64,000 nucleotides of DNA from Methanotrichaceae archaeon (GTDB lineage: Archaea; Halobacteriota; Methanosarcinia; Methanotrichales; Methanotrichaceae), in the NCBI GenBank assembly GCA_963748825.1, contig CAVVKN010000009.1, positions 224,001 through 288,000 on the forward strand, written 5' to 3'. The position numbers and the translations under genes were made by a program. This document shows, piece by piece, positions 3,732 to 52,718 of the stretch (position 1 is the stretch's first letter; each line of letters starts with the position of its first letter). The notes under the pieces are model-generated. The model worked only from the letters and a program-made list of their open reading frames with translations, was not told the DNA's origin and made no database searches.

Positions 3732-4052
3732 GTGAGTCTTTTAGATAATGGAACTTCAATAGAAGCCGCTTTTGCTATGGCCGACGGCAAGTACGATGAA
3801 GCCATCAAGGCTTACGATGAGGATATCAGGCTCGAACCCAGTTATGCCGGGGCCAGGTACAACAAGGGACTTGCTCTCAAGGACAAAGGCAACTACACTG
3901 AGGCCCTCAAATGCTTCGATGAGGCCTTCGAGTTAGATTCCAAAGATGCCATGGCCTATTATGCAAAAGGTGCCGTTCTTAAATTACTTGGGAGGACCAC
4001 CGAAGCCAATGTTGCCTTCGCCAAAGCTAAAGCGCTGGAGAATAAGGGCTAA
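3732..4052 (+). CDS. Short TPR protein, possibly an N-terminally truncated remnant
   Basis: KYDEAIKAYDE...YNKGLAL...EALKCFDEA TPR consensus. Confidence 0.65.
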   Translation: MSLLDNGTSIEAAFAMADGKYDEAIKAYDEDIRLEPSYAGARYNKGLALKDKGNYTEALKCFDEAFELDSKDAMAYYAKGAVLKLLGRTTEANVAFAKAKALENKG

Positions 4053-4451
4053 TTCCAGGTCCAATCAGTATGTGTAACCTGTAATCCCTCCCCCATAGTT
4101 GCGCGGTGGATTGCAGATTTTCTATTTGCTCTTAATGATCTCGATTATCGCTATCTTTAGATTGTAAACCTATTTTTATCATGACTATGAGGATGATTGG
4201 TCAGGCAGAAGTGGCAGCTGGCGTGTCCAAGGGCCTGGAGCATGAGCCAGATCGGCTTTAAGCCATAGGACTTCGCAGTAGTATCGTTTGGTCCGTCTCC
4301 AGTGGCTCCAGGCTCGCCTTCTGCTCGTCAACCAGGCAGATTAAGGATGCGGCTGTATCCGCCAATTCGAATTTGACCCCTCACGCCAATCCGATTTTGA
4401 TCCACTCTTAAGCGGCTAATCATTCTCATCATGTATAAAGTTCACGTCTCG

Positions 4452-5159
4452 CTACCTTCTTCTGAAGCTCTTTCCGTTCATGTTCAATATCAATGCGTGA
4501 TGGGTAATCCTATCGAGAATTGCAGCCGTTAGAGTCCGATCATGAAATACCTTCACCCAATCGGAAAATGACAGGTTCGATGTGATGATAGTACTCATAG
4601 TCTCGTATCGCGTGGCAAGCAACTGAAAGAGCAACTCAGCTGCTGTGAGATCAAAAGTAACATAACCAAGCTCATCGATTATTAGGAGATCAATTTTTCT
4701 AAACTGCTTAATATAAACAGAGAGCCGATTTTCGTTTCTTGCTTCAACCATCTCATTGATCAAACCGGCTGCCGTGCGAAATGCAACTCGATAATTTTCC
4801 TCACAAGCCCGGATTCCTACAGCGATTGCCAAATGAGTCTTGCCTGTTCCAGAATTGCCAATGAGAATGATATTTCTACGCTCCTTGAGGAATTCGAGTG
4901 CTTTCAAAGCAGGGATCGCCTCTCTCCCATCTTGCGGCAGATCATCCAGTATCAGATCCTCAAACCTCTTCTTTGTGGGAAATCCCGCGAGCCTGAGCGA
5001 TCTCATCTGGCGATTCACTCTCCTTTTATCAAGTTCTGCCTGAAGTGCAGACATTAGGAATTCCTGCAGGTCATCATTATCCGGCGAATATTCTTGCACA
5101 TAGCTGTAGACTCCGCTCAGCCTCAATTGCTTGCATAGGTCTTCAAGTGTCAAGTCCAC
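4452..5159 (-). CDS. istB: IS21 helper AAA+ ATPase IstB
   Basis: Walker A GNSGTGKT, Walker B LLIIDELGY, TSNL and AILDRITH motifs. Confidence 0.95.
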   Translation of the reverse strand: MDLTLEDLCKQLRLSGVYSYVQEYSPDNDDLQEFLMSALQAELDKRRVNRQMRSLRLAGFPTKKRFEDLILDDLPQDGREAIPALKALEFLKERRNIILIGNSGTGKTHLAIAVGIRACEENYRVAFRTAAGLINEMVEARNENRLSVYIKQFRKIDLLIIDELGYVTFDLTAAELLFQLLATRYETMSTIITSNLSFSDWVKVFHDRTLTAAILDRITHHALILNMNGKSFRRR

Positions 5160-6852: not shown

Positions 6853-7179
6853 TTATTTTATCGTTTTCTTGGTGCTTCGCTTGACCACGACTACCTTTAG
6901 TGTATCCGCCCCGAGCTTCTCTATACCGACTTTCTTGACTATTGGCTTCCAGATCTTATCCGGCATCCATGCTGGTGCTCCCTTAGGTTTCTTTACCTGT
7001 TTTCGCTCACCCGTGAATACGTGAACTTTCTTAGTTCCACGCTCTCTCAGCCTGATGTCAGTGATACCACGATTTGCAGCCTTTAAAGCTGCCTGTCTCG
7101 GCTGCTTTCCAGTAAAGACTCCATTCTCGTTGCCATCCTTATCTCGCAAGGCAAAGTTTCTCATCTCTTTCTCAGCCAA
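6853..7179 (-). CDS. Non-histone chromosomal protein MC1
   Basis: RNFALRD...GVFTGKQPRQAALKAANRG...IRLRERGTKKVHVF...PAWMPD signature; GGAGG before TTG start. Confidence 0.95.
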   Translation of the reverse strand: MAEKEMRNFALRDKDGNENGVFTGKQPRQAALKAANRGITDIRLRERGTKKVHVFTGERKQVKKPKGAPAWMPDKIWKPIVKKVGIEKLGADTLKVVVVKRSTKKTIK

Positions 7180-7378
7180 ATTATTCCTCCTACACCAAAG
7201 ATCGATACGCTCTGATGTAACTGCTTGTATTAATTATTATCCATGAGGTAATACTCACACTATCGGATCGGGACTTAGAGAACGGATCGGGTGCGTTGTC
7301 CTGTGAAATCCATTGTATGAAAGTAGGGGATAAAATTTCAGTATAGGAATCCAACTAATAGGTATCTGGTGAGCAATT

Positions 7379-7642
7379 TCATTTTTTCATTAGAAAACTT
7401 CGTCCAAGATCTGTGAGCTGGATTTGATTTAAACCATTTTTGAGAGTTAAATGCCCTTCCTTACGAGAGCCTGATTGGGTATTTATGTAGCCGAATTCTT
7501 TTAAACGGGTAAAACGATCTAACAATACTTTTTTCTCAAGCCTTAAAGCTCTCTTGACATTTACTGAAAAAACCCATCCTGTTAGAGATCTATCGTAAAT
7601 CGCTTTAAGAATTTTTTCATCTATTTCATCTATTATATCCAT
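7379..7642 (-). CDS. Small winged-helix protein
   Basis: IDEKILKAIY...RFTRLKEFGYI...IQLTDLGRSFL wHTH pattern. Confidence 0.6.
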   Translation of the reverse strand: MDIIDEIDEKILKAIYDRSLTGWVFSVNVKRALRLEKKVLLDRFTRLKEFGYINTQSGSRKEGHLTLKNGLNQIQLTDLGRSFLMKK

Positions 7643-8577
7643 CAGTCGCAGCCCCCCAAACAGCCAACAAAACATTCGATTACAATAATGAGGCTGCAAA
7701 GATTTATAATTATTGTTATAACGGCAGCAGCGCGTCCACGCAGCAATTTACTGTATCCCGCATAAAAACCATCCCGTAAAGGGCGATTTTTTTAAGATAG
7801 TTTCCTCGCAATAGTTCATCCTCTACCATACCATGCCCTTTTATTCCTTGATCCCCCGCTCATTCAAGATCCGGGAATAAGGGGCCTGGGAAATATTTGA
7901 GTGGAAATTGGTCCGGGCAATTAAAGAACGCATGGCAGCAGGACGGGACTTGAAAAAGCAAAAAGCGAAAGGAAAAAGCGACCCGCACTTTTGATATGCG
8001 GATATTTGACCGACAGGTATATAGTCTGATGTGCCCCTGGTGAAGAGGCTTCATTTGCATTGATTCAAAAAAATTGTTGAGATGTTTTTGCGAGCACCAA
8101 TCGATTCTTGAAATCGATAAAAGGATACATAGGATAAATGAGATTTGGAAATGGCAGAGACGGCTTGAATATTGATCCAAGAGAGACGACCGACGTGACA
8201 TGTTCCTATTTGGGACTTGATACCGGGGCACCTTTCCTAGAAAACGGATCCAAGCCTGCATATTCCCAGGAATGCTTGCCAAAAGCACAGGCGAACGGCC
8301 TGCTAAGCAATCAAGGCGATATTAAAAGGATTTGATTATAATATTATTTTCATTTCGTTTTAACAAAGTAGCATTCTTCCCCAAGTGCCTCTGCAGCCGG
8401 TTGAAGTATCTATCCACATTAAGAGACAACAGATACGACTCAACCAGTTTTTCAGATGTGAGAAGTATCCGAGCGGGACCTATTGCAAAAGAGATACCTG
8501 AATATGTCTTTTCGGATCCGCATCAAAGGACTTCAACCAAATCAAAGATCAACACTTAAAATTATCTAGAGGCAAGA

Positions 8578-29956: not shown

Positions 29957-32081
29957 TTACTCTCTTCTGCCAAGTACCAGGAAGGCAACTGCCAGGAGAC
30001 CGGTTATGGCGAGAATGCTCTCGAATCCGGGTGTAGCCTTCTCGGCAGCCTTAGCCTCGGTTACGTTTTCCTTAGCAGCAGTCTCGACAGCCTTAGCCTC
30101 TGCTACTTTTTCAGTAGCGGCAGTCTCGGCAGCCTTAGCCTCGGTTACGTTTTCCTTAGCAGCCTCGACTACTGTGGTGGCGGCTGGAGCAGCCTCAACA
30201 GCGGGTGCGGCCTCAGCGGCGGGGGCAGCAGCGCCCTCGATGGTTACTGCCTTGTATATGTAGTACCTGAGGGTATCGTTGTCAGCGGTCTTGATGCTTA
30301 TGCCGCTCATCAAGGCGGTATCCTTGTTCTTGCTGAGAGTTATGGCGTTGTCCTTGTTCTCCATGGTGATGGTTCCGGCGTTTGCATCCACGGAGGTGAT
30401 GGTCATCTTATCGTACTGAGGTGTCGGCCTTTACATCAGTTGCCTCACCGGATATCTGCCAGATGCCATCGACTGTGGCCAGATTCTGGTCAGCGCCACG
30501 GAAGGCGTTCTTGAAGTGAGCTGCGATGGTAATCAGCTTCTTCTGATCGCCTACAGCGGGATTCTTGTAGTAGTAAGTCTTGTCGGACATAGTCGCGTCG
30601 GCCTTGGACGGGGATATGACCTTGCTGTCTACTACAGAGCCATCCTTGGAGAGCTCGAGATATACCTTGTTGCCGTCGATATCAATGGATTTGATAGCCA
30701 GCTCGTAGCCTTCTTCCATCTTCATGGGTGTGCCAGAGGTGACAGTCTTCTCGGTATCGTCATCAATAAGGATCTTCTGGAGCTGCTCGCTGGACAGGGA
30801 ATTCTCATCAGTGGACTCTTTGAACAGGAGGTTCTTATCGGCGTTGTCAACGTTCTCGACATAGCCTGCGAAGTACCTGTCTGCTAGGAAGCCCATGACA
30901 TTGAATGCGCCCCAATCCTCGTACTTGAACTCCTTGGCCTGAGCCTTGGTCTCATACTTGACACCATAGGGCGAGTCGCCGCTCAGCTTCTTATCGGTTA
31001 AGGTTGTGCTGAGTGTCTCGGTTCCGATGTCATCCTTAATATCATAGTAGAATCCTGCGAAGTTCTGAGAATTCCATGTGTTGTCTGCGGTAGCGACTGC
31101 GCCACGGATCTCATAGGTTCCGGGCTCAGTTATTTCCTTGTATATGTAGTACCTGAGGGTATCGTTGTCAGCGGTCTTGATGCTTATGCCGCTCATCAAG
31201 GCGGTATCCTTGTTCTTGCTGAGAGTTATGGCGTTGTCCTTGTTCTCCATGGTGATGGTTCCGGCGTTTGCATCCACGGAGGTGATGGTCATCTTATCGT
31301 ACGAGGTGTCGGCCTTGACATCAGTTGCCTCACCGGATATCTGCCAGATGCCGTCGACTGTGGCCAGATTCTGGTCAGCGCCACGGAAGGCGTTCTTGAA
31401 GTGAGCTGCGATTGTTACCAGCTTCTTCTGATCGCCTACAGCGGGATTCTTGTAGTAGTAAGTCTTGTCGGCCATGTTCGCGTTGGCCTTGGACGGGGAT
31501 ATGACCTTGCTGTCTACTACAGAGCCATCCTTGGAGAGCTCGAGATATACCTTGTTGCCGTCGATATCAATGGATTTGATAGCCAGCTCGTAGCCTTCTT
31601 CCATCTTCATGGGTGTGCCAGAGGTGACAGTCTTCTCGGTATCGTCATCAATAAGGATCTTCTGGAGCTGCTCGCTGGACAGGGAATTCTCATCAGTGGA
31701 CTCTTTGAACAGGAGGTTCTTCTCGGCGTTGTCAACGTTCTCGACATAGCCTGCGAAGTACCTGTCTGCTAGGAAGCCCATGACATTGAATGCGCCCCAA
31801 TCCTCGTACTTGAACTCCTTGGACTGAGCAGTGGTCTCATACTTGACACCATAGGGCGAGTCGCCGCTCAGCTTCTTATCGGTTAAGGTTGTGCTGAGGG
31901 TCTCGGTTCCGATGTCATCCTTAATATCATAGTAGAATCCGGCGAAGTTCTGAGAATTCCATGTGGTGTCTCCGGTAGCGACTGCGCCGCGTACCTCCAC
32001 TTTCTCGACCGCGCCGACTACCATCGCTGTTGCTAGTAACAGCATCATCGATGTAAGCGTAATTGCAGCCAATTTCTTCAT
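29957..32081 (-). CDS. Major S-layer protein (two DUF1608-type domains, PGF-CTERM), frameshifted by one extra base at 30417
   Basis: WNSQNFAGFYYDI domains twice; second copy reads TCGTACTGAGG vs TCGTACGAGG in the first; ORF 29957..30406 continues the repeat and ends PGFESILAITGLLAVAFLVLGRRE. Confidence 0.9.
30250..31988 (-). repeat. Near-identical intragenic tandem repeat, period 885 nt
   Basis: Matching blocks at 31093/31978 and 30418/31303 (offset 885; 886 on the other side of the insertion). Confidence 0.92.
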
Positions 32082-42468: not shown

Positions 42469-43461
42469 TCATTTCAGCTCATGGGTTTTAGAGTAGTCCA
42501 CCAGAATGGATATGGGCGCCGTCTTGATCTTTATCCCCAGCTCCTCGGCGGCCACCACCCCATTGACTCCTGCATAAAAGGCTATGCCGATCTTGCCCGC
42601 GCCCACGGGGCAGCCCAGTACGGGCTCGGACGGCTCACCGATTTTTATGAGCCCACCGAGGCCCGCGTTTCGAGTCTCATCTAAAAGAGCGCGCACAAGC
42701 GTTGCCGCCGCGTCGGGCACCTCTCTCACATTGGCCAGCACTGTTCCCGAACCTTTGAAGACGGCATCGGCAACACTTGTCACCCTGCGGCCCATAAAAA
42801 CCTTAATGGGATCAAGTGACGAGCCGGCATAGGCAATGAGGTCCGTGAAGTCAAAGGTCTGCCTTTCCCTGACTTCTGCCAGCCCCGCGAAGCTGGTGAG
42901 AACAGGAATTCCTCTTTTCATGAGCATGCCGTCCAGAGTGATGCTGCACAGCGTTGCTATGCCCAAAGCTCCTTTTGGAATCTCGATAGTTGAGAAGCTC
43001 TCTCCCTCATCCAGGATGAGCACGCGACGGCTTATGGTGTAGCCTGCGTCGAAAGCGTGCCCAAGTATCTCGAAGACCTCTTCCGCATTTGCTTTGTCGA
43101 TGATGCTGGTATTGGCGATTACATCTCCTTGACCGGACTTAGGATCGAAACTGGTCTTGAACATATATTCTTCAATCCTGGTATTGACAAAGCCTATCCG
43201 GTCGTCGACAAGGGCGTCGCCCAGCTCCCTTGACCCCAGAGGTGTGAGCACCCGGCCGCTGTAGCCTTTCTTCTTGGTGAATCCCAGCTCGTCCAGGATC
43301 TTGAGGTTGTAGCGCACAGCCCTCTCTCCCAGGTCATAGCCGCGACTACTAAGGCAATCAGAGATCGCTCTGGCCCCCACCGGGGTGCCTGTGTTTTCGA
43401 TAACGCGCAGGATCTCAATTAGCCTTCTCTGGCTCACATGCGCCTTGGTGAGAAGCTTCAT
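42469..43461 (-). CDS. nrpR: NrpR-family regulator (wHTH plus one NRD/DUF128 domain)
   Basis: IEILRVI..PVGARAIS..GYDLGERAVRYNL..LDELG; TLCSITLDG; IAYAGSSLDP; LANVREVP. Confidence 0.85.
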   Translation of the reverse strand: MKLLTKAHVSQRRLIEILRVIENTGTPVGARAISDCLSSRGYDLGERAVRYNLKILDELGFTKKKGYSGRVLTPLGSRELGDALVDDRIGFVNTRIEEYMFKTSFDPKSGQGDVIANTSIIDKANAEEVFEILGHAFDAGYTISRRVLILDEGESFSTIEIPKGALGIATLCSITLDGMLMKRGIPVLTSFAGLAEVRERQTFDFTDLIAYAGSSLDPIKVFMGRRVTSVADAVFKGSGTVLANVREVPDAAATLVRALLDETRNAGLGGLIKIGEPSEPVLGCPVGAGKIGIAFYAGVNGVVAAEELGIKIKTAPISILVDYSKTHELK

Positions 43462-43545
43462 CTTCCTTGCTCCTCCGGGAAAGGCCATATATATCTTATG
43501 CGGATAACACTTGCCCGGCTTAAAACCCGGAAAAGATAAAATCAT

Positions 43546-43618
43546 AGTCCCGTGGGGTAGCGGTCAATCCTGAGGGCCTTTGGAGCCCGCGACGGCGGTT
43601 CGAATCCGCCCGGGACTA
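43546..43618 (+). tRNA. tRNA-Gln(TTG)
   Basis: Acceptor AGTCCCG/CGGGACT, anticodon loop CTTTGGA, T-arm GGTTCGAATCC. Confidence 0.93.
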
Positions 43619-43715
43619 CTTCCAACCTTAAAACCATTGGAAACGTAGATATATTCGCTCATATCTATGAGGTGAAGGCCGGTCCATGTTTTGGCCTGGC
43701 ATCAAGACGGCAATT

Positions 43716-43790
43716 GCTCCGGTAGTGTAGCCCGGCCAATCATTTCGGCCTTTCAAGCCGAAGACTCGGGTTCAAATCCCGGCCGGAGCA
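43716..43790 (+). tRNA. tRNA-Glu(TTC)
   Basis: Acceptor GCTCCGG/CCGGAGC, anticodon loop CTTTCAA, T-arm GGTTCAAATCC. Confidence 0.93.
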
Positions 43791-43972
43791 TTTTATTATC
43801 AACTAATTTTTGCCGAATACCTGGATTTTGAGTAATAGCATCTGCCATCCGTCTCGTGTGAAGAAAAGAGGATTTCCGCGCGAAGACTGCCCCCGACGAG
43901 TTATGCATCTTTTCAGCATCCAATAATTAAATGGGTCCATAGGTATTGATTGTATCCAAAACTCCCGACATA

Positions 43973-44209
43973 TTTATATTCCATAAGCCGGAAGATTGGG
44001 ATTGTGCCTGAGCAAAATACTCAAATATGAGCGAAGAAGCATGTGAGTCAGGTACCCCACACGACAAAGCACCAATATGGCGGCTTTTGCGGGTTTATAC
44101 CCAGGCAAGGGCTGGCTAATCTTTGTCGGCGTGGTGCCAGGGATTTAGGCCACGACTGATGGCTTGGATCCTGAAGCGTTGATGTTTAACCTAAGGAGGT
44201 GGGAAAGAA
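43973..44209 (+). promoter_or_regulatory. TATA box plus ~200-nt structured leader of array copy 1
   Basis: TTTATAT at 43973; GTGCCTGA at 44004 pairs with TCAGGTAC at 44048; GGAT...GATCC hairpin before AGGAGG. Confidence 0.6.
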
Positions 44210-44938
44210 ATGAGAAAATTAATAGCTGTTTTGGTTATTATCGCCATGGCCGTAGTAGGCATGGCCGGTGCCGCAAATTACATGTACGAAAAGGCATCGA
44301 TCAAGGGCGTAGGATACAAGAACGTAGAGATGATCATTTCCACCCAGTATGGCTTTATGGGCCAGAAGCTGGTAGAGAAAGAGTCCGGTTCCGGTAACGT
44401 CATCACCGAGAGGACTGAGCTTGAGGCTGAGAGACAGCTCGATAGGCTCGGCAACTCACTTGGTGTCTGCCCGTGGCCAACCGGAAGTGTCCCCATGGAC
44501 TACATCAACTTCACCAAGGAAGCTGAGTTCGAGTACATGCCCGTCTCTTACCAGACCGGCACCTACGACCAGAAGTGGGTAGAGAAGTTGTGCGTGCAGA
44601 ACTACAGAATCGGCGCTGTGCTGACTGAGATGTACACCCATGCTGAGCACCTGCAGAAGACCACCGAGGTCAAGACCCGCGGATACGGCAATACTCTAGT
44701 TACTGCCTGCTGCACCGGTGTTCTCGAGGCTAACCTGAACAGCAACGTCATCGGCGTTGCCCACATCGGCTGGATCTCCAGGGACCCCATGGCTGAAAAC
44801 AACCTCAAGGGCCGCCATGCTGAGTACGGCAGATCTGTCGAGGACCTGACTGGCGTCTTCTCCATCGAGAAGTTCATCCAGCTCTGGGGCAACTCCACAT
44901 GCGGCGCAATCAGCGTTGACTGGCTGCCCTGCGTGTAA
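44210..44938 (+). CDS. Secreted Cys-rich beta protein, copy 1 (putative major sheath protein, MspA-like)
   Basis: Signal peptide ending GMAGA; 6 Cys in mature part; strong C-ending codon bias similar to the S-layer gene; AGGAGG RBS. Confidence 0.7.
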   Translation: MRKLIAVLVIIAMAVVGMAGAANYMYEKASIKGVGYKNVEMIISTQYGFMGQKLVEKESGSGNVITERTELEAERQLDRLGNSLGVCPWPTGSVPMDYINFTKEAEFEYMPVSYQTGTYDQKWVEKLCVQNYRIGAVLTEMYTHAEHLQKTTEVKTRGYGNTLVTACCTGVLEANLNSNVIGVAHIGWISRDPMAENNLKGRHAEYGRSVEDLTGVFSIEKFIQLWGNSTCGAISVDWLPCV

Positions 44939-44964
44939 ATAGAAATCTGTAACAATCGAATCTG

Positions 44965-45004
44965 GCTCCGGGCTCTTAAGCCTGGAGTTAAATTTGTTTT
45001 TTTG
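44965..45004 (+). terminator. Hairpin plus T-tract after copy 1
   Basis: CTCCGGGC...GCCTGGAG then T run; equivalent hairpins follow copies 2 (46191) and 3 (47282). Confidence 0.65.
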
Positions 45005-45158
45005 CTTCTTATTTGGACGGGCTTCCCATCGTATTATGCAGAAATCTCTATGCAAGAGATTCCTAAATCATGGGATGCAGGTCACTTGCAATAGAAGAAA
45101 ACAAGCAATAGAAGCACATATATTGGACGACAAAATTCTCTTTTTCATGCTCGATAGG

Positions 45159-45434
45159 TTTATATGCCATTAACCTAATCAGAAATGTTGTGCCTGAAAA
45201 ACACACTCAATGGAATCATAGGGTCAGGCGTCTCACGCCGAATAGGGTGGCATTTGACGCTTTCGGCCGATGCTTTAGAGCAAAGCCGAACCAAGCGGTT
45301 TCATCTTTTCTGGTGGAACACTCCCGAATCTTCGATGAGGGATTCTGCTATCCAATCGGGGTGATGTACTGAAGGATCATTCGTTGCTGTCAAAGAGCAG
45401 CCTTCGATCCTCATGTAAAGGAGGTGGGAAAGAA
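45159..45434 (+). promoter_or_regulatory. TATA box plus structured leader of copy 2
   Basis: TTTATAT at 45159; GTGCCTGA at 45190; TCAGGCGT at 45224; GGATC..GTTGCT..AGCAGC..GATCC hairpin. Confidence 0.6.
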
Positions 45435-46163
45435 ATGAGAAAGTTAATAGCTGTTTTGGTTATTATCGCCATGGCCGTAGTAGGCATGGCCGGTGCAGCA
45501 AATTACATGTACGAAAAGGCATCGGTCAAGGGCGTTGGATACAAGAACGTAGAGATGATCATTTCCACCCAGTATGGCTTTATGGGCCAGAAGCTGGTAG
45601 AGAAAGAGTCCGGTTCCGGTAACGTCATCACCGAGAGGACTGAGCTTGAGGCTGAGAGGCAGCTCGATAGGCTCGGCAACTCACTTGGTGTCTGCGCGTG
45701 GCCAACCGGAAGTGTCCCAATGGACTACATCAACTTCACCAAGGAAGCTGAGTTCGAGTACATGCCCGTCTCTTACCAGACCGGCACCTACGACCAGAAG
45801 TGGGTTGAGAAGTTGTGCGTGCAGAACTACAGAATCGGCGCTGTGCTGACTGAGATGTACACCCATGCTGAGCACCTGCAGAAGACCACCGAGGTCAAGA
45901 CCCGGGGATACGGCAATACTCTAGTTACTGCTTGCTGCACCGGTGTTCTCGAGGCTAACCTGAACAGCAACGTCATCGGCGTTGCACACATCGGCTGGAT
46001 CTCCAGGGACCCACTCGCTGAAAACAACCTCAAGGGCCGCCATGCTGAGTACGGCAGATCTGTCGAGGACCTGACTGGCGTCTTCTCCATCGAGAAGTTC
46101 ATCCAGCTCTGGGGCAACTCCACATGCGGCGCAATCAGCGTTGACTGGCTGCCCTGCGTGTAA
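45435..46163 (+). CDS. Secreted Cys-rich beta protein, copy 2
   Basis: Differs from copy 1 at three residues (I>V, P>A, M>L). Confidence 0.7.
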   Translation: MRKLIAVLVIIAMAVVGMAGAANYMYEKASVKGVGYKNVEMIISTQYGFMGQKLVEKESGSGNVITERTELEAERQLDRLGNSLGVCAWPTGSVPMDYINFTKEAEFEYMPVSYQTGTYDQKWVEKLCVQNYRIGAVLTEMYTHAEHLQKTTEVKTRGYGNTLVTACCTGVLEANLNSNVIGVAHIGWISRDPLAENNLKGRHAEYGRSVEDLTGVFSIEKFIQLWGNSTCGAISVDWLPCV

Positions 46164-46307
46164 ATAGAAATCTGTAACAATCAAATCTGGCTCCGGGCTC
46201 TAAGCCCGGAGTTCAAAATATATTTTTAATCATCGTTTCTTAAAAACGGTATCAATTATATTTTTGATTTCGTCGCATTGCCAAAAAAGCAGCTCTCGCT
46301 CGATAAA

Positions 46308-46528
46308 TTTATATGCCATTAGCCTGATTAGTAGAATCGTGCCTGAGAGACGTTTTCAATTGCCCGATCAAAAACATGGGGCCAGGCGCCTCACGCCGTG
46401 GAGGATCGCACGCAATTGTTCCTTCAGATGCGATAACGCGGTCCGCAGTCCAATCGGGGTGATACATTAGGGATCATTCGTTGCTTTTAATGCAGCTCTC
46501 GATCCGGATGAAAAGAGGAGGGAAAGAA
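46308..46528 (+). promoter_or_regulatory. TATA box plus structured leader of copy 3
   Basis: TTTATAT at 46308; GTGCCTGA at 46339; CCAGGCGC at 46382; GGATC..GTTGC..GCAGC..GATCC hairpin. Confidence 0.6.
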
Positions 46529-47257
46529 ATGAGAAAACTGATAGCTGTTTTGGTTATTATCGCCATGGCCGTAGTAGGCATGGCCGGTGCAGCAAATTAC
46601 ATGTACGAAAAGGCATCGATCAAGGGCGTTGGATACAAGAACGTAGAGATGATCATTTCCACCCAGTATGGCTTTATGGGCCAGAAGCTGGTAGAGAAAG
46701 AGTCCGGTTCCGGTAACGTCATCACCGAGAGGACTGAGCTTGAGGCTGAGAGGCAGCTCGATAGGCTCGGCAACTCACTTGGTGTCTGCGCGTGGCCAAC
46801 CGGAAGTGTCCCCATGGACTACATCAACTTCACCAAGGAAGCTGAGTTCGAGTACATGCCCGTCTCTTACCAGACCGGCACCTACGATCAGAAGTGGGTT
46901 GAGAAGTTGTGCGTGCAGAACTACAGAATCGGCGCTGTGCTGACTGAGATGTACACCCATGCTGAGCACCTCCAGAAGACCACCGAGGTCAAGACCCGGG
47001 GATACGGCAATACTCTAGTTACTGCTTGCTGTACCGGTGTTCTCGAGGCTAACCTGAACAGCAACGTCATCGGTGTTGCACACATCGGCTGGATCTCCAG
47101 GGACCCACTCGCTGAAAACAACCTCAAGGGCCGCCATGCTGAGTACGGCAGATCTGTCGAGGACCTGACTGGCGTCTTCTCCATCGAGAAGTTCATCCAG
47201 CTCTGGGGCAACTCCACATGCGGCGCAATCAGCGTTGACTGGCTGCCCTGCGTGTAA
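46529..47257 (+). CDS. Secreted Cys-rich beta protein, copy 3
   Basis: Differs from copy 2 at one residue (V>I). Confidence 0.7.
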   Translation: MRKLIAVLVIIAMAVVGMAGAANYMYEKASIKGVGYKNVEMIISTQYGFMGQKLVEKESGSGNVITERTELEAERQLDRLGNSLGVCAWPTGSVPMDYINFTKEAEFEYMPVSYQTGTYDQKWVEKLCVQNYRIGAVLTEMYTHAEHLQKTTEVKTRGYGNTLVTACCTGVLEANLNSNVIGVAHIGWISRDPLAENNLKGRHAEYGRSVEDLTGVFSIEKFIQLWGNSTCGAISVDWLPCV

Positions 47258-47375
47258 ATAGAAATCTGTAACATTAATCAGGCTTCGGGCTGCAAAGCCC
47301 GGAGTTCATATTATTCTTTTTAATTATCTTTCTATATTCTTGATTTCGTCGCGTTGCCAAAAAGCAGCTCTCGCC

Positions 47376-47822
47376 CAAGGGCGTAGGATACTGATCATTT
47401 TCACCCAGACCGGCTTTAACGACCAGACGTGGGTAAGAGAAACTGTGCGCGCAGAACTACAGGATCAACGCTGTGTTGACTGAGGTGTTCACCCATGCCG
47501 CGCTATCTGCAAAAGACCACCGAGGTCAAGACCAGAGGCCATAGCACTGCATGGAACCATGAAATCAGCAGACCGACGCGCAATGGGCGCCTCCGCTGCA
47601 CAGGTGTTCTTGAAGCGATCCGGAACAGCAGCGTCATCGCTTTGCCCACATCGTTTGGATCTCTCGCGACCACAATGCTGACCTATAGCTGAAAGGCCGT
47701 CATACTGAGTGCGGCAGATCTGTCGAGGACCTGACTGCCGTCTTCTCCATCGAGAAGTCATCTGGCTCTGGGGCAACTCCACATGCGGCGCCGTCAGCGT
47801 TGACTGGCTGCCTTGCCTGTAA
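47376..47822 (+). pseudogene. Promoterless, degraded fourth tandem copy with a longer variable loop
   Basis: CAAGGGCGTAGGATAC start; internal deletion joined at CCAG; LQKTTEVKTRG..CTGVLEA retained; indels in the 3' part. Confidence 0.85.
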
Positions 47823-48076
47823 ATGGATCAATTATAAATTTTTTAGGTATATCGCGTCGGATTTTCTTTCCTGGATGCAAAATCCGGCCGAAAGTAAGAT
47901 ACTTATGTGCCGTCGTGAGCGCGGATCGACTTTTTCCCGTGCAAATAACAGATAGATTTATATCAAATAAAAACGCCAGAGTATCACTGTAGTTTAAAGA
48001 TCGCACATAAAGCGATAAAGCATCTACACAAAAGGGATAAGAAATTTGTTGCATTAACATCGGGGGTGAATGTAGC

Positions 48077-48871
48077 ATGAAGGGAGTAGTAGGAATAGTT
48101 GTACTTGCAATTGCCCTTATGGGGCTATGTGGTACTGTGATGGCCAATCCGCCCATAGTTCCACCCGTACAGTATGAGCAATTTTGTGAAAATCATAAGG
48201 TATCCGGAACGGGAATTATCGATGTCAGCACATCGGTAATCGACAAAAAAATAGCACTCGAGTATTTCAACACCATGAATGGCGACGGAGATCTCGAGTT
48301 GGACCAGGAGACCGCATATTCACAGGATGCCGACAAGCTGAAGAGGAATGTATCCTCAGTCAATGGTGGAAATGAATCCGGTCTAAATCTCATCCAGTCC
48401 ACTAAGCTGACCTATGCTGGCGAGACGCCCTTGACCGGCGGCAAGCTCCTCAACTCCAAGGCCTTCTATGGAGGCATGGGTGCCAATGTGCAGGAGCTTT
48501 TCTCAGTAAATGAGATGGAACAGGATCAGACCGCGTTCTTTGCCTCAACCACGCCCTATGAGTCAGACTACGGCGCACCGGAGAATCTGCCCAACTTGCT
48601 CAAGAATGCCGGCAGAGACACCGATACAGTCGAGAAGCTCATGACGGCTAAAAATGGTGTATATGTTCCGTCCCATCTGATTGGTCTCGAGACCAAGAAC
48701 TCCTTCAATGGTACCTGGGGCACGGACGCAACCTGGCATAAGATATTCTACAAGGACATAAAGGCCCACGAGATGTTCACAGGTGTGTTCGAAGCCGAGA
48801 AGACCATTAAGTTCCATGAGAACCCGGTGCCTGATAGAATCCGTGCGCCGTGCGAAGGCATAGACTGCTAG
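48077..48871 (+). CDS. Secreted protein, distant homologue of the array subunit (putative minor subunit)
   Basis: Signal peptide; ENHKVSGTG, GANVQELF, EMFTGVFEAEKTIKF align with subunit motifs; C-terminal CEGIDC. Confidence 0.7.
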   Translation: MKGVVGIVVLAIALMGLCGTVMANPPIVPPVQYEQFCENHKVSGTGIIDVSTSVIDKKIALEYFNTMNGDGDLELDQETAYSQDADKLKRNVSSVNGGNESGLNLIQSTKLTYAGETPLTGGKLLNSKAFYGGMGANVQELFSVNEMEQDQTAFFASTTPYESDYGAPENLPNLLKNAGRDTDTVEKLMTAKNGVYVPSHLIGLETKNSFNGTWGTDATWHKIFYKDIKAHEMFTGVFEAEKTIKFHENPVPDRIRAPCEGIDC

Positions 48872-48931
48872 GCCGAGAAAGCCTGCAGTTTTTTCTATTT
48901 TTTTTTAAAAGCTTTATGTTGGGGGGTTAGC

Positions 48932-50110
48932 ATGAAAAGACAAATGATTTGGATAATGATAATATTCATCCTGACGGCAGCCCCGGTAGCGGCAACGGTT
49001 GAGGACTCGGGCATGGCTCCTGGTGATGTTTCGAGCAGCCTCGGGACTGGTTTCACATCGCCAACTTTGCCTGCATTTCTGCCCAGCCCCTGTTCCGGTG
49101 ATTCCGGTAGCCTCACCGTGAGCGTCGGCCTTACCGGGCCAGAGTCAGAGCCGGATAAATTGTATACAACCCCAGGCAAACCACTGGACTTCATGGTCAC
49201 GGTAAGTAACGATGGTAGAACGGAGGTGGAGGCACAGGTCGGCGTCAAGCCGGAGGGCTGTCCTTTTGTTTGGTTTAGCTGGACGACCACTCCCATGACC
49301 ATTCCGGCAGGAGTCTCTCGCTCGGTGGCCCTGCAAGTTTTTCCGGATACAAACGCAGTAGCCGGAGAGTACAGATTCGCGGTGGAGGCCTCGGCCAAAT
49401 GCCGTAGCTCTGGGCAAAGAGATGCGAAATTCAAGGTGCAAGCATTCGACTACGCCTCAGAGACCACTGTCGCCGGCACGGGCCAGTTTCAGATGAATAA
49501 AGACCTCAGATCCATGAACTCCGGTATCAAATCCACCAAAAACGTGCTGTTTTCCGGCAGCGTGGATGCCCTGGTGAAGAACGAATACCTGGTGGACGCT
49601 GCAAAGGGCAAGAATGCCAACTTCCAGGAACAGGATGCAGTTGACAACTACAATGCCGTCTCTCTTGGGGATGCGCTTGTAGGAACAGAGAGCTTCAAGA
49701 GTTCAGCGATCTTCGGAGGAGTGGGTGCCAAAGTCAAAGAGAGCTACGATGTGCAGCAGATGGAGTTCAAGAACCAGGATTTCACACTGCATCAGACGGG
49801 ATCTCTAAAGAAGACGGCAGAGTTCAAGACGATGGACAACTTCACTGGATATTACCTGATAGATGCTAAGCAGGTAATTCCCGGTCAGAAGAATCTGAAG
49901 GAGTTTGAGGAGTATTTCGGATCATTTGAGATCAATAGGAGAATACTCTTCCGGGATGACACAAAATCCAGGACGCCATGCCAGGAAGGAGACTGTCTGA
50001 AAGCGCCAAGCATTAAGACACCAACACCAATCAGTCCCAGCTTTACCAGCCCCTGCTTAAGCGGCTCATGCAACGACTTCGTGAACCGACTGAATTCATT
50101 CGGCAAGTGA
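48932..50110 (+). CDS. Secreted protein: Ig-like domain plus array-subunit-like domain, Cys-rich tail
   Basis: PGKPLDFMVTVSNDG...IPAGVSRSVALQV...AGEYRFAVEA Ig-like pattern; ETTVAGTG, GAKVKESY, EEYFGSFEINRRILF. Confidence 0.7.
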   Translation: MKRQMIWIMIIFILTAAPVAATVEDSGMAPGDVSSSLGTGFTSPTLPAFLPSPCSGDSGSLTVSVGLTGPESEPDKLYTTPGKPLDFMVTVSNDGRTEVEAQVGVKPEGCPFVWFSWTTTPMTIPAGVSRSVALQVFPDTNAVAGEYRFAVEASAKCRSSGQRDAKFKVQAFDYASETTVAGTGQFQMNKDLRSMNSGIKSTKNVLFSGSVDALVKNEYLVDAAKGKNANFQEQDAVDNYNAVSLGDALVGTESFKSSAIFGGVGAKVKESYDVQQMEFKNQDFTLHQTGSLKKTAEFKTMDNFTGYYLIDAKQVIPGQKNLKEFEEYFGSFEINRRILFRDDTKSRTPCQEGDCLKAPSIKTPTPISPSFTSPCLSGSCNDFVNRLNSFGK

Positions 50111-50278
50111 GCATGGGCGTTCCTTTTTTTTATTTTCCACGGATTTAGGCGGCCAAAACATTAAAATAGCCTCCAGAGAACCTGTACCAGGGTGCTAGGG
50201 TATCAGGAGAGTGAAAGCCTGGGATTTTTTAAATGTGCCCGATTCAGGGACAAACCAGGCTAGAGGAGGTAGTGTGGA

Positions 50279-50992
50279 TTGAAGAGAGAATTGATCGTTT
50301 TAGCGGTTATCGCCATGGCATTAGTTGGCATGGCTGGGGCTGCCAATTACATGTACGAGAAATCGTCTGTAAAAGGAGTGGGGTATCGAAGCCTGGAGAT
50401 TGTCATCTCCACACAAAACGGCTTTAATGGGCAAAAGCTGGTGGAGAAACAGTCCGGCTCAGGAAATGTAATCACTTCCAGAATTGAGCTTGAAGCCGAG
50501 AGGCAACCTACGGACCTGAGTTGTCCCTGGCCGACCGGGACAAATCCCATGGACTACATCAACTTCACCTCGGAGCAGGAGCTGGAGTACATGCCTGTCT
50601 CATATCAGACCGGCACTTATGACCAGAAATGGGTAGACAAGCTCTGCGTGCAGAACTACAAGATAGGCGCTGTGCTCACTGAGATGTATACCCATGCTGA
50701 GCACCTGCAGAAGACCACCGAGGTCAAGACCAGGGGATACAACAACCAATCTGTTACCCCATGTTGCACAGGCGTTCTCGAAGCCAACCTGAACAGCAAC
50801 GTCATCGGCGTTGCACACATCGGCTGGATCTCCCGTGACCCAAAGGCTGATAACAACCTCAAGGGCCGCCATGCTGAGTACGGCAGATCTGTCGAGGACC
50901 TGACTGGCGTCTTCTCCATCGAGAAGTTCATCCAGCTCTGGGGCAACTCCACATGCGGCGCAATCAGCGTTGATTGGCTGCCCTGCGTGTAA
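50279..50992 (+). CDS. Secreted Cys-rich beta protein, divergent paralogue (TTG start)
   Basis: Same scaffold as copies 1-3 with different loops (PTDLSCPW, YNNQSVTPCC); GGAGG RBS. Confidence 0.75.
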   Translation: MKRELIVLAVIAMALVGMAGAANYMYEKSSVKGVGYRSLEIVISTQNGFNGQKLVEKQSGSGNVITSRIELEAERQPTDLSCPWPTGTNPMDYINFTSEQELEYMPVSYQTGTYDQKWVDKLCVQNYKIGAVLTEMYTHAEHLQKTTEVKTRGYNNQSVTPCCTGVLEANLNSNVIGVAHIGWISRDPKADNNLKGRHAEYGRSVEDLTGVFSIEKFIQLWGNSTCGAISVDWLPCV

Positions 50993-51242
50993 GCCTTAAT
51001 TGAAAAAAATAGCGCCGCCGCATAATTCGGCGCTTATTTCCTTTTTTATAGAGCAGTTTAGGATGGCATCTCGAAAACTGCATCAATCGGGTACTTACAG
51101 GACAGCCTGCCGGGAAGCTAGCTAGTATTTAAAGGGAGAGGTAGATATAACAAAGAGACCATTCCTCTTGAGACGGTGTCTGATTAGATCCGGCAGAGAT
51201 GAGACATACATTGGATTAATGATTCAAAGAAGGTGAATTTAA

Positions 51243-51395
51243 ATGAGCAAGAAAAAAGGTGCTAAAGGAATGCCCAACGACGGGCCAGGCAAGCATGATC
51301 CCTCTAAACCACAGAAGAATAAGTCAGACGCGCCACTATTTAATAAAATGAAGGGCGGAATAACGAATGAGCGACCTCGAAAAACTCGGATCTGA
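51243..51395 (+). CDS. Small basic protein, 50 aa (MSKKKGAKGMPNDGPGKHDPSKPQKNKSDAPLFNKMKGGITNERPRKTRI)
   Basis: Below ORF-track cutoff; AGGTGA RBS; TTTAAA box about 115 nt upstream. Confidence 0.55.
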   Translation: MSKKKGAKGMPNDGPGKHDPSKPQKNKSDAPLFNKMKGGITNERPRKTRI

Positions 51396-51599
51396 GGAGC
51401 TGTGTGGATAACCGTCAATGAAATGATTGGGTATAATTCCCATCATTACCTTTTGACCGGTCCTCGCTCTGAGTGCTGCCCGGGCGCGCGGCCCGGCCGG
51501 CGTGCTCGCGTGCGGGGGGGGCGAGAGGCCAGGTGTGACGGTGTTTCGGCTGGATAGGTCAGCAGACGGGGCTTTCAGTCTGCTGATAATGTTATGCAC

Positions 51600-52718
51600 T
51601 TAATCCTGGTGCCCGTTATTCAGCAAGAGCAGGCTTATGAACATCCCGGAAAAGATGGTCTGAATTCCCAGGATGGAAAAGATCATGGCCATCATGGCGC
51701 TGGAAGCTGCGTCTAATGCCCCGAAGCCCGAGGCCCCCCAACTCAGCATGACTTTCAGGCCGAGAAGGACGCCTGCAGCAAGCAAAACCATGCCGATGAA
51801 AAGCTCCTTTTCCAAGGAGTGGTAACTGATCATCCATTTTATTCTGCCCGGGCGAGAGAGGCCATAGGATGCCCCGAAGGCCTCAAAATAGAGTCCCGCC
51901 AAGAACATTTGATAGCCTATGATGAGCAGCAGGCCGCCCAGGATCAGGGAATGCATCCTTGATCCTCCCTGCAGATACACTCCCCCAGATAGAGCCAGCC
52001 CAAAAACAAGGGCTAAAAGTCCGGGAACGAGAAGAAACGGCACAGGCCGATAGAGCATCATGAAACGCACATGTCTCCAGCCATCGGTAAAGGAGTGCAA
52101 CTTGGAGAGTCCTTTGCGAGGGGAGTAGGTGATGGGAACCTCTGCAATTCTCAGATCTTTGCAGACAGCCTCAATGAGCATCTCGGAGGCGAACTCCATT
52201 CCTCCCGACCTGAGATTCAGTTTTTTTAGGGCATCTTTGCTAATGGCACGAAGGCCACAGTGGGCATCAGAAATGCGGCTGGAAAATAGTGTGTTCAAAA
52301 TCCAGGTGAGAACTGGATTTCCAATATAACGATGAAGGGCAGGCATGGCCCCGGGAAGGATCACTCCATTGAGCCGCGACCCCATAACCATGTCATAATT
52401 GCCGCTTTGCAGTATGGCGATCATATCTTGAATGGCTTTGGGATCATAGGTCAGATCACCGTCCATGAGAACAATGTAGTCCCCTTCCGCCTGCTCGAAG
52501 CCGGCCAAGTAGGCATTTCCGTATCCCAGCTTTTGGGGCTTGATAACCTTTGCCCCGCATGAATTAGCAATTGCAGCCGTCTCGTCGCTCGAGCTGTCTG
52601 CCACCAGGATCTCTCCCGCCAGGTCCATTTCTGCGAAGACCTGTTGGGCTCTTTGAATGCATTCGCAGATGGTCTCTGCTTCGTTTCTGGTGGGGATGAT
52701 GAGGCTTACTTTGGGCAC
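51600..52718 (-). CDS. GT2 glycosyltransferase (Dol-P-sugar synthase-like) with C-terminal TM domain
   Basis: IIPTRNE, DSSSDET, GYGNAY, MDGDLTY, GSR, DAHCGLRA. Confidence 0.9.
   Translation of the reverse strand: MPKVSLIIPTRNEAETICECIQRAQQVFAEMDLAGEILVADSSSDETAAIANSCGAKVIKPQKLGYGNAYLAGFEQAEGDYIVLMDGDLTYDPKAIQDMIAILQSGNYDMVMGSRLNGVILPGAMPALHRYIGNPVLTWILNTLFSSRISDAHCGLRAISKDALKKLNLRSGGMEFASEMLIEAVCKDLRIAEVPITYSPRKGLSKLHSFTDGWRHVRFMMLYRPVPFLLVPGLLALVFGLALSGGVYLQGGSRMHSLILGGLLLIIGYQMFLAGLYFEAFGASYGLSRPGRIKWMISYHSLEKELFIGMVLLAAGVLLGLKVMLSWGASGFGALDAASSAMMAMIFSILGIQTIFSGMFISLLLLNNGHQD

Follow-up and report, generated by a model that had tools for sequence, protein, structure and literature searches.

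Which genes build the protein sheath that encloses the filaments of Methanothrix? The genus is among the main acetoclastic methane producers, and its sheath is the surface at which it meets syntrophic partners, minerals and viruses. The identity of the sheath builder is disputed: a proteomic answer of 2015, MspA, stands against a structural-genomic answer of 2024, the SH (sheath-forming) proteins. Dueholm is said to have reported in 2015 that MspA of Methanosaeta thermophila PT was found in purified sheaths. We address the question with a 64,000-nucleotide (nt) stretch of a Methanotrichaceae archaeon (assembly GCA_963748825.1, contig CAVVKN010000009.1, positions 224,001 to 288,000), called the window below, in which a run of genes for secreted proteins occupies positions 43973-50992 of the + strand. 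A first-pass annotation, made from the sequence alone, took this run for a sheath locus, with MspA as a candidate identity and curli csgBA as an analogue. We find it probable, and hold the view with good confidence, that the proteins are sheath subunits and that their genes make up the core SH cluster of a Methanothrix genome. The sheath reading of the first-pass annotation is upheld by secreted subunits that model as all-beta and self-associating, by a family limited to sheathed organisms and by a gene set of amplified major subunit, variant and two paralogues; its MspA identity and its curli analogy are not. The window's own genome is coded G000 here, and other genomes and stretches carry codes of the same kind (G007, G036, G046, G110, L036 etc.).

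The open reading frame (ORF) listing of the locus contains six intact, co-oriented genes and one remnant, all on the + strand. Together with the control elements they are as follows, in window coordinates, with the basis of each assignment in brackets.

43973..43979, + strand: TATA box TTTATAT of major copy 1 (237 nt 5' of the start codon)
44210..44938, + strand: putative major sheath subunit gene, copy 1, 242 amino acids (aa), signal peptide at about residues 1-21 (ORF, repeat, model)
44963..44990, + strand: terminator-like hairpin followed by a T-run after copy 1 (hairpin search)
45159..45165, + strand: TATA box of major copy 2 (conserved motif)
45435..46163, + strand: putative major sheath subunit gene, copy 2, 242 aa when read from the ATG that corresponds to the start of copy 1 (ORF, alignment)
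46189..46213, + strand: conserved hairpin followed by T-rich sequence after copy 2 (hairpin search)
46308..46314, + strand: TATA box of major copy 3 (conserved motif)
46529..47257, + strand: putative major sheath subunit gene, copy 3, 242 aa (ORF, alignment)
47281..47306, + strand: hairpin and T-rich run after copy 3 (hairpin search)
47405..47822, + strand: decayed remnant of a fourth major-type copy (alignment to the major gene)
48077..48871, + strand: putative 264-aa secreted SH paralogue, with a TTTATAT box at 47957 (ORF, position compared with G007)
48932..50110, + strand: putative 392-aa secreted SH paralogue with a Cys-rich tail (ORF, profile comparison)
50279..50992, + strand: gene of a 237-aa variant subunit that starts with TTG (83% identical in aa to the 242-aa protein)
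51016..51032, + strand: hairpin and T-run after the 237-aa gene (hairpin search)

Repeat finding places the starts of the major copies 1225 and 1094 nt apart, and the copies differ from one another at 9-17 of 729 nt, mainly synonymously, and at one to four amino acids. The listed ORFs of copies 2 and 3 are longer (259 and 258 aa) by way of upstream TTG codons; the true start in both is likely to be the ATG homologous to that of copy 1, judging from its GGAGG site. A TTTATAT box lies 221-276 nt 5' of each major copy and a GGAGG ribosome-binding site precedes each; in copy 1 a conserved GTGCCTGA block follows 24-31 nt 3' of the box, a motif that is kept before all three. The remnant keeps nothing of the major gene before codon 114: it aligns to codons 114-242 (84.7% nt identity), is broken by four or more frame changes and by several in-frame stops, and is without a start codon, a 5' half and a promoter. 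The anatomy given by the first-pass annotation is confirmed: six co-oriented signal-peptide genes with one genuine pseudogene, three near-identical 242-aa copies at exactly those spacings, and a promoter and a terminator (TTTATAT box, GGAGG, 3' hairpin and T-run) for each major copy. An Rfam scan of 43000-52000 returned only two tRNAs and no known leader RNA. A sigma-70 promoter scan, which found 4 matches where 7.8 were expected, is irrelevant to an archaeon.

The 242-aa protein begins with MRKLIAVLVIIAMAVVGMAGA followed by ANY, in which we read a charged n-region and then a hydrophobic core of 14 residues, with AGA preceding the site where cleavage is likely. Its cysteines are at positions 87, 128, 167, 168, 231 and 241, six in all as first claimed, and it has two N-glycosylation sequons, N100 and N228, that are conserved in the major subunit. 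Compared with Pfam and NCBIfam, including the anchor-signal models, the four locus proteins gave nothing above threshold; the sub-threshold matches (laccase, NYN RNase) are chance hits. The 237-aa protein is the divergent paralogue that had been described, at 83% aa identity to the 242-aa protein. The description of two remote homologues is borne out by sequence only in part: the 264- and 392-aa proteins show homology to one another over their C-terminal 110-150 residues (BLASTP E 5e-8; hhalign 96%, E 3e-9), but the match of either to the 242-aa family extends over no more than 24 columns, in the C-terminal motif TG.F..EK.I (hhalign probability 10%, E 0.003; BLASTP E 0.025). Seven mature sequences aligned with MAFFT are collinear and share 12 invariant positions, among them an N-terminal G.G turn, which is suggestive while not being a statistical test. 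The 392-aa protein has an N-terminal Ig-like/NEW3-like domain at residues 80-154 (PF10633, E 2.7e-4, under the Pfam cut-off), and a NEW3 domain is annotated in some of its relatives in precomputed tables. In the signal region of the 264-aa protein (window 48077-48130) Cys18 is invariant in 15 of 15 aligned relatives, in a motif that is not a classical lipobox; the G007 counterpart is labelled 'Lipoprotein' in Table S4 of PMC11576556, and a lipid-anchored form of the protein is possible.

The distribution of the family is one line of evidence for its role. A profile built from 24 family members was searched against 151 genomes including G000, all outside Methanomicrobiales and ANME-1: each of the 74 genomes sampled from the family to which the window belongs had a match, as against none of the 76 that represent four other families of its class. 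Among the genomes searched, the SH family is confined to sheathed lineages. In a collection of 5.8 billion proteins the 242-aa protein has 2462 relatives at E<=0.001, of which the best 120 are 86-99% identical and are unnamed or hypothetical proteins of Methanothrix or Methanotrichaceae; the relatives of the 264- and 392-aa proteins are likewise unnamed or are hypothetical proteins of the same groups. Only 206 representatives of a 50%-clustered library match the 242-aa protein, which makes for a narrow family. In 46 genomes the count of close full-length copies (E<=1e-90) ranges from 0 to 9 per genome, and 43 of the 46 have at least one.

Gene order is conserved as well. We compared stretches from 10 other genomes, representing at least five genera, and in 10/10 the order S6e, NrpR, SH242 (one to four copies), SH264, SH392 is kept; the first-pass annotation had pointed to synteny across the family, set against non-sheathed relatives, as a check of the sheath reading, and both the order and the family count speak for that reading. 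Beyond S6e there is a geranylgeranyl reductase gene in 9/10 stretches, and a 237-type variant follows SH392 in 8/10 of the other genomes. Positional orthologues of the 237-aa gene, which form a clade, are seen in 9 of the 11 genomes in our tree (G000 and eight others). One stretch, L036 (G114:C1), has the 264-type gene twice, at 3749-4537 before the 392-type gene and at 6902-7690 after the variant gene, which indicates that the minor-subunit part of the cluster can duplicate too.

These features match those of a system that has been described. Taking the sheath protein of Methanospirillum hungatei as their reference, Medvedeva, Borrel and Gribaldo (ISME J 2024; PMC11576556) looked for structural homologues across archaea, and report SH proteins in all Methanotrichales, clustered and with neighbours up to 100% identical. 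Table S2 of that paper gives consecutive SH proteins of 236, 393 and 258, then 260, 240 and 240 aa for a Methanothrix soehngenii genome, and of 362, 271 and 243 aa for M. thermoacetophila; the window lengths in matching order are 237, 392 and 264, then 258/259 (with the upstream TTG starts) or 242 aa. The one-contig genome G007 encodes proteins of 243, 271 and 379 aa (from the first possible start) in the same order, with 85%, 52% and 57% identity to the window proteins. From gene order, lengths and this 52-85% identity, and not from a match of accessions, the locus appears to correspond to the Methanotrichales SH cluster. Table S4 of the same paper places Mthe_0668 first and Mthe_0667 third among M. 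thermoacetophila transcripts. The SH system was published in 2024, and the locus appears to be another genome's copy of it and not a new kind of system. What is added here to the account in PMC11576556 is an array that appears older than the species, its homogenised coding regions, a stable 237-aa orthologue, codon bias in the major copies only and a proposal for an interface between N- and C-terminal strands.

Structure models describe how such subunits might assemble. The AlphaFold2 (AF2) model of the 242-aa protein, from a 24-row alignment, has a mean predicted local distance difference test (pLDDT) score of 74.4 and a predicted TM-score (pTM) of 0.71, and is all-beta after the signal helix: a helix at 2-17 and a disordered link come first, and DSSP then assigns ten strand elements. 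Four of these measure 23-25 residues and probably comprise two strands apiece, which would bring the model to about 13 segments. The mark of the SH family is a core of two six-stranded antiparallel beta-sheets; the Protein Data Bank holds no atomic model of an SH protein, the deposits being EMDB maps only. The low-confidence segments (79-95, 161-168 and 229-242) hold five of the six cysteines. No solved structure resembles the model, and no viral model in BFVD does either; weak Foldseek rows for pore-forming proteins (MACPF, gasdermin pores), with TM-scores of 0.06-0.15 and probabilities of at most 0.2, led us to reject a pore-forming toxin reading.

Three copies of the mature 242-aa protein, modelled together, form a chain. 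The complex has an ipSAE of 0.79 (0.78, 0.81 and 0.79 in separate runs) against 0.00 for the best of three controls, the runs share at least 89% of contacts, and partner pLDDT is at least 79. In a calibration 20 of 30 proteins solved as same-chain pairs scored 0.79 or higher, as did 1 of 23 solved as single chains; our run used an alignment of our own and three copies, both unlike the calibration set-up. The contacts are head to tail, residues 204-229 running antiparallel to 22-45 of the next copy (e.g. 215 with 35 and 222 with 27), with a second patch of 112-119 against 134-136 and 182-192. Because the copy in the middle binds a neighbour on either side, the chain is open-ended; as modelled, the 242-aa subunits would join into a continuous beta-sheet polymer. 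The C-terminal strand is the best-conserved part of the family (motif TGVFSIEKFIQL; consensus RSVEDLTGVFSIEKFIQLW) and the only part common to the 264- and 392-aa families, and that shared strand suggests that the paralogues can join the polymer of the major subunit.

Codon usage and RNA libraries bear on how strongly the genes are used. Expressed as the effective number of codons (ENC) and set against 1524 long ORFs of G000 (median 51.4), the three major copies have values of 41.8-43.9, in the 3rd-7th percentile, whereas the 264-, 392- and 237-aa genes are unremarkable (49.6, 54.2 and 52.3); the high-expression codon bias attributed to the locus is thus a property of the three major copies only. 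An index search with a 9.9-kb stretch found 24 runs that hold part of it, 13 of them recorded as RNA. Contigs from four metatranscriptomes of four studies cover leaders and coding sequence of the major genes (44020-44174, 45217-45482, 45774-46075) as well as the 264-aa gene, and one spans the 264- and 392-aa genes (48063-50108), although a contig that spans two genes is no proof of a single transcript. Contig depths in the same two runs are in the thousands for the major genes, about 90-115 for S6e and about 12-21 for NrpR, in assemblies of mixed communities where contig depth cannot rank genes. Two RNA contigs begin at 44016 and 44020, 37-41 nt past the TATA box, and hint at a leader of about 190-200 nt for copy 1. 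Runs X3 and X4 have no contig over the pseudogene or over the spacer after copy 1, where missing contig cover proves nothing. The RNA contigs are consistent with strong expression, and no more.

Several considerations weigh against identifying the locus with the sheath genes. The placement of its proteins in the Methanothrix sheath is one that we infer, and the tie to the Methanospirillum sheath protein comes from the structural search described in PMC11576556. The complex is known by a confidence score and not by a measurement, and beta-rich proteins are easily placed edge to edge. The 264-aa protein has a weak sequence link to the major family and an AF2 model (pLDDT 42.4) that is unusable, and the RNA evidence consists of assembled mixed-community contigs and not of read depth. 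The sole proteomics done on purified sheaths of Methanothrix, according to citations in PMC6242892 and PMC10470525, identified MspA (Mthe_1069). MspA could be the true hoop-forming protein, with the locus proteins serving as other abundant secreted components of the envelope, for example in the granular inner layer, as spacer plugs or in a matrix that lies between cell and sheath. That MspA is highly transcribed (Table S4 of PMC11576556; Table 3 of PMC10470525) and that the plug proteins are still without an assigned identity in the literature cited here both lend something to this possibility. We nevertheless consider it improbable: homologues of MspA are reported in only a few Methanotrichales (Table S3 of PMC11576556) while the 242-aa family is in 74/74 genomes, the 242-aa protein models as an open-ended polymer, and in G000 the region similar to a presumed MspA is split over three reading frames. 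PMC11576556 itself considers MspA (ABK14853.1, 575 aa) to have been probably misidentified as the main component, treats it as secondary and renames it MspB.

The comparison with MspA was made through G007, where L023:17521-19248 is the only 575-aa signal-peptide ORF in a 115-kb scan and is presumed to be MspA by length alone. It belongs to no Pfam family, and its best BLASTP E value against the 242-aa protein is 0.089, which is no significant similarity. The only region of G000 similar to it (36-51% identity) is on another contig, at C3:110070-111816 (L026-L028), and is distributed over three frames that match query residues 8-310, 310-477 and 479-553; the called ORFs are of 335 and 197 aa and overlap by 4 nt. 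This region may be a disrupted gene, two genes or an assembly error. The suggestion that the locus encodes MspA fails on these grounds, its proteins having 237-392 aa against the 575 aa and 60.9 kDa of MspA, the ORF presumed by length to be MspA being dissimilar to them, and the homologue in G000 lying on contig C3.

A different division of labour is conceivable within the locus itself. As in curli, the 264-aa protein, the 392-aa protein or both might act as nucleator, anchor or chaperone (CsgB-like) and not as co-polymerising subunits. The fixed order of major, 264 and 392 genes in 10/10 other genomes and the C-terminal motif that the families share would suit such a system, and the 'Lipoprotein' label of the G007 counterpart (PMC11576556), taken with the invariant Cys18, makes a membrane tether conceivable. 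We think it unlikely, given that an AlphaFold model in PMC11576556 sets both proteins side by side in one ring and that no locus-specific secretion channel, chaperone or regulator was found. Beside the cluster in G000 and in the 10 other genomes, genes for a nucleator, a chaperone, secretion or a locus-specific regulator were not found; the neighbours are the geranylgeranyl reductase, S6e, NrpR and two tRNAs, and the curli csgBA analogy as an assembly system has to be given up. The paralogues are better regarded as probable minor subunits.

The near-identity of the three major copies raises a question of its own. Coding identity among the three units is 97.7-98.8%, but it is only 30-45% over the 240 nt upstream and 43-52% over the 200 nt downstream, and the repeat unit runs from 18 nt before the ATG to 5 nt past the stop. 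Maximum likelihood, applied to 37 coding sequences of 11 genomes, gives a tree in which major copies cluster with others of their own genome (G000 100/100, G046 100/100, G036 97/99, G028 98/98, G020 100/100), while the 237-type variants of eight genomes form a single cross-genome clade (94/100). Within genomes the major coding regions are 97-99.5% identical (G036 a versus b, 94.8%), and between G000 and its nearest sampled relative, G036, they are 90.5% identical. The spacers behave differently. The G000 spacer between copies a and b matches the a-b spacer of G110 (80.8% over 349 nt), the b-c spacer of G036 (78.4% over 352 nt) and the a-b spacer of G046 (73.8% over 309 nt), and the b-c spacer of G000 matches the a-b spacer of G036 (73.7% over 354 nt); the two spacers of G000 share only patches of 65, 84 and 101 nt that correspond to the terminator, the region of the ribosome-binding site and the promoter.

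Coding regions that group by genome, between spacers that are orthologous across species, indicate that two to three copies at least were already arrayed before these species parted and that their coding regions have been homogenised since; on sequence comparison, therefore, the major array appears to predate the species splits. The alternative is a very recent tandem duplication, a simple dosage amplification with no gene conversion, and this is how PMC11576556 reads the identity of up to 100% between neighbours; the variable copy number (0-9 matches per genome in 46 genomes) is in keeping with it. It does not account for a fall in identity from 98% to 30-52% exactly at the ribosome-binding site and a few bases past the stop, nor for distinct spacers whose orthologues occur in three further genomes, in contrast to coding regions that cluster genome by genome, and we regard it as very unlikely. 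The 'relatively recent duplications' of PMC11576556 fit less well than an old, homogenised array, and the same holds for the dosage amplification of the first-pass annotation, where it is taken as recent duplication. The variant gene hints at partial conversion too: over the final third of the gene, the variant of G000 has 91.1% identity to the major copy of its own genome and 85.8% to its G036 orthologue, and over the first third the values are 68.8% and 89.1%.

These observations suggest a model in which the 242-aa protein is exported by way of a Sec-type signal peptide and polymerises head to tail outside the cell, the C-terminal edge strand (204-229) of one subunit pairing antiparallel with the N-terminal strand (22-45) of the next and 112-119 making a second contact with 134-136 and 182-192. 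Beta-sheets would then run from subunit to subunit to form the rings and hoops of a tubular sheath, and the five of six cysteines in low-confidence loops or in the C-terminal tail would be likely sites of inter-ring and inter-hoop disulfides. Three separately promoted and codon-optimised copies would supply the bulk subunit, and the 264-aa, 392-aa (Ig-capped) and 237-aa paralogues, with their fixed order across the family, would probably be minor subunits that enter the polymer by similar edge strands. The tandem major genes would be an old array whose coding sequence, from ribosome-binding site to stop, is kept near-identical by gene conversion.

A more inclusive proposal is tentative, and taken as a whole it is somewhat more apt to be wrong than right. 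It holds that gene conversion from ribosome-binding site to stop keeps the old array uniform, because a paracrystalline hoop of hundreds of subunits would tolerate one subunit sequence only, and leaves the promoters and leaders of about 200 nt free to diverge; that the 264-, 392- and 237-aa trio are fixed minor subunits which would dock at the edges of hoops, at plugs or at a membrane tether by way of the same N- and C-terminal edge strands; and that MspA is dispensable, because its homologue in G000 looks broken. In this context G000 is useful as a genome with an intact SH array in which the MspA-like gene appears disrupted. The locus offers testable material for the dispute over the sheath in the form of a family-wide, four-member gene set, a predicted interface that can be mutated and candidate disulfide positions. 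A small new point is that the array has evolved in concert, an instance of a repetitive extracellular lattice constraining its genes.

The surroundings of the cluster in G000 comprise genes for the geranylgeranyl reductase, S6e, NrpR, tRNA-Gln and tRNA-Glu (the two tRNAs just upstream of the cluster), a GT2 glycosyltransferase and a dodecin. Only the geranylgeranyl reductase, S6e and NrpR genes are conserved beside the cluster; nothing downstream is conserved across the genera of the 10 other genomes. The NrpR-type regulator (PF01995, E 1.8e-85, plus a winged helix) is at window 42469-43545 on the - strand, directly 5' of the cluster, and is present in 10/10 other genomes. The glycosyltransferase, which has a C-terminal membrane region, is at 51600-52718 (-), directly downstream of the cluster; one is also beside the cluster in the G046 and G036 stretches and was not seen in the other fetched stretches. 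An S-layer gene of 557 aa is found 12 kb upstream at 30408-32081 (-), with two domain stretches (PF07752, E 1.6e-149) and an ENC of 40.0 that places it among the most codon-biased ORFs of G000; PMC11576556 describes an S-layer gene near Mthe_0668 in M. thermoacetophila. Elsewhere in G000 there are dispersed short paralogues (C25:5350-5772, C13:25028-25438, C18:116614-117015 and C18:137805-138122), open frames of 159-192 aa with 49-58% identity that cover only about residues 106-241 of the major subunit. A frame of 647 aa carries one module of this kind too, and the profile matches 18 times in G000 in total.

Relatives of the subunit are also encoded by viruses. Thirty-two IMG/VR contigs encode proteins that are 58-85% identical to it, most of them across residues 1-242; a tblastn search against GenBank phages gave no match. 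The homologues at L038:5001-5774, L039:5001-5732 and L065:5001-5771 are 85%, 82% and 58% identical, and those of L038 and L039 have a signal peptide. Beside the homologue L038 has genes for a DNA polymerase, a dCMP deaminase, an HNH endonuclease and a helicase, L039 has those for a head-morphogenesis protein and a head-tail adaptor, and L065 those for a tail protein and a Neck1 protein. Viral SH-like proteins are reported in PMC11576556 and are proposed there to perturb sheath assembly at egress. The viral homologues fit this published idea that viruses of sheathed archaea carry SH mimics.

Set beside known systems, the locus is closest to the published SH clusters. The Mthe_0668/Mthe_0667 cluster and the six-gene cluster of M. 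soehngenii have the same gene order and near-identical lengths, and in common with the locus they have signal peptides, near-identical copies in clusters, an S-layer gene and tRNAs close by, homologues in viruses and a range restricted to the family; nothing essential differs. MspA is, like the locus proteins, secreted, beta-rich, highly expressed and found in the same organisms, but it is of 575 aa and not 237-392 aa, has no significant similarity to them, is encoded at another locus and has a patchy distribution (PMC11576556). The SH protein of M. hungatei, also called 'MspA' (WP_011449234.1, Mhun_2271; Christensen 2018, Wang 2023), forms rings of continuous beta-sheets linked by disulfides, according to the mass spectrometry and cryo-electron tomography described in PMC10593813 and PMC6242892. 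It resembles our model of the locus protein in being secreted, in having beta-sheets that continue across subunits into rings, and in having cysteines on flexible segments that are proposed to link rings and hoops; it differs in its lack of detectable sequence similarity, its length of 377 aa, its helical cap and its one to two cysteines. Curli (CsgA/CsgB with CsgEFG) and Fap are likewise extracellular beta-sheet polymers whose major and minor subunits are encoded side by side. They possess accessory genes for secretion and nucleation, of which none was found at the locus, and they consist of stacked short repeats that make a fibre, whereas the locus protein, as modelled, is a folded domain that would pair by antiparallel edge strands and build a closed ring and tube.

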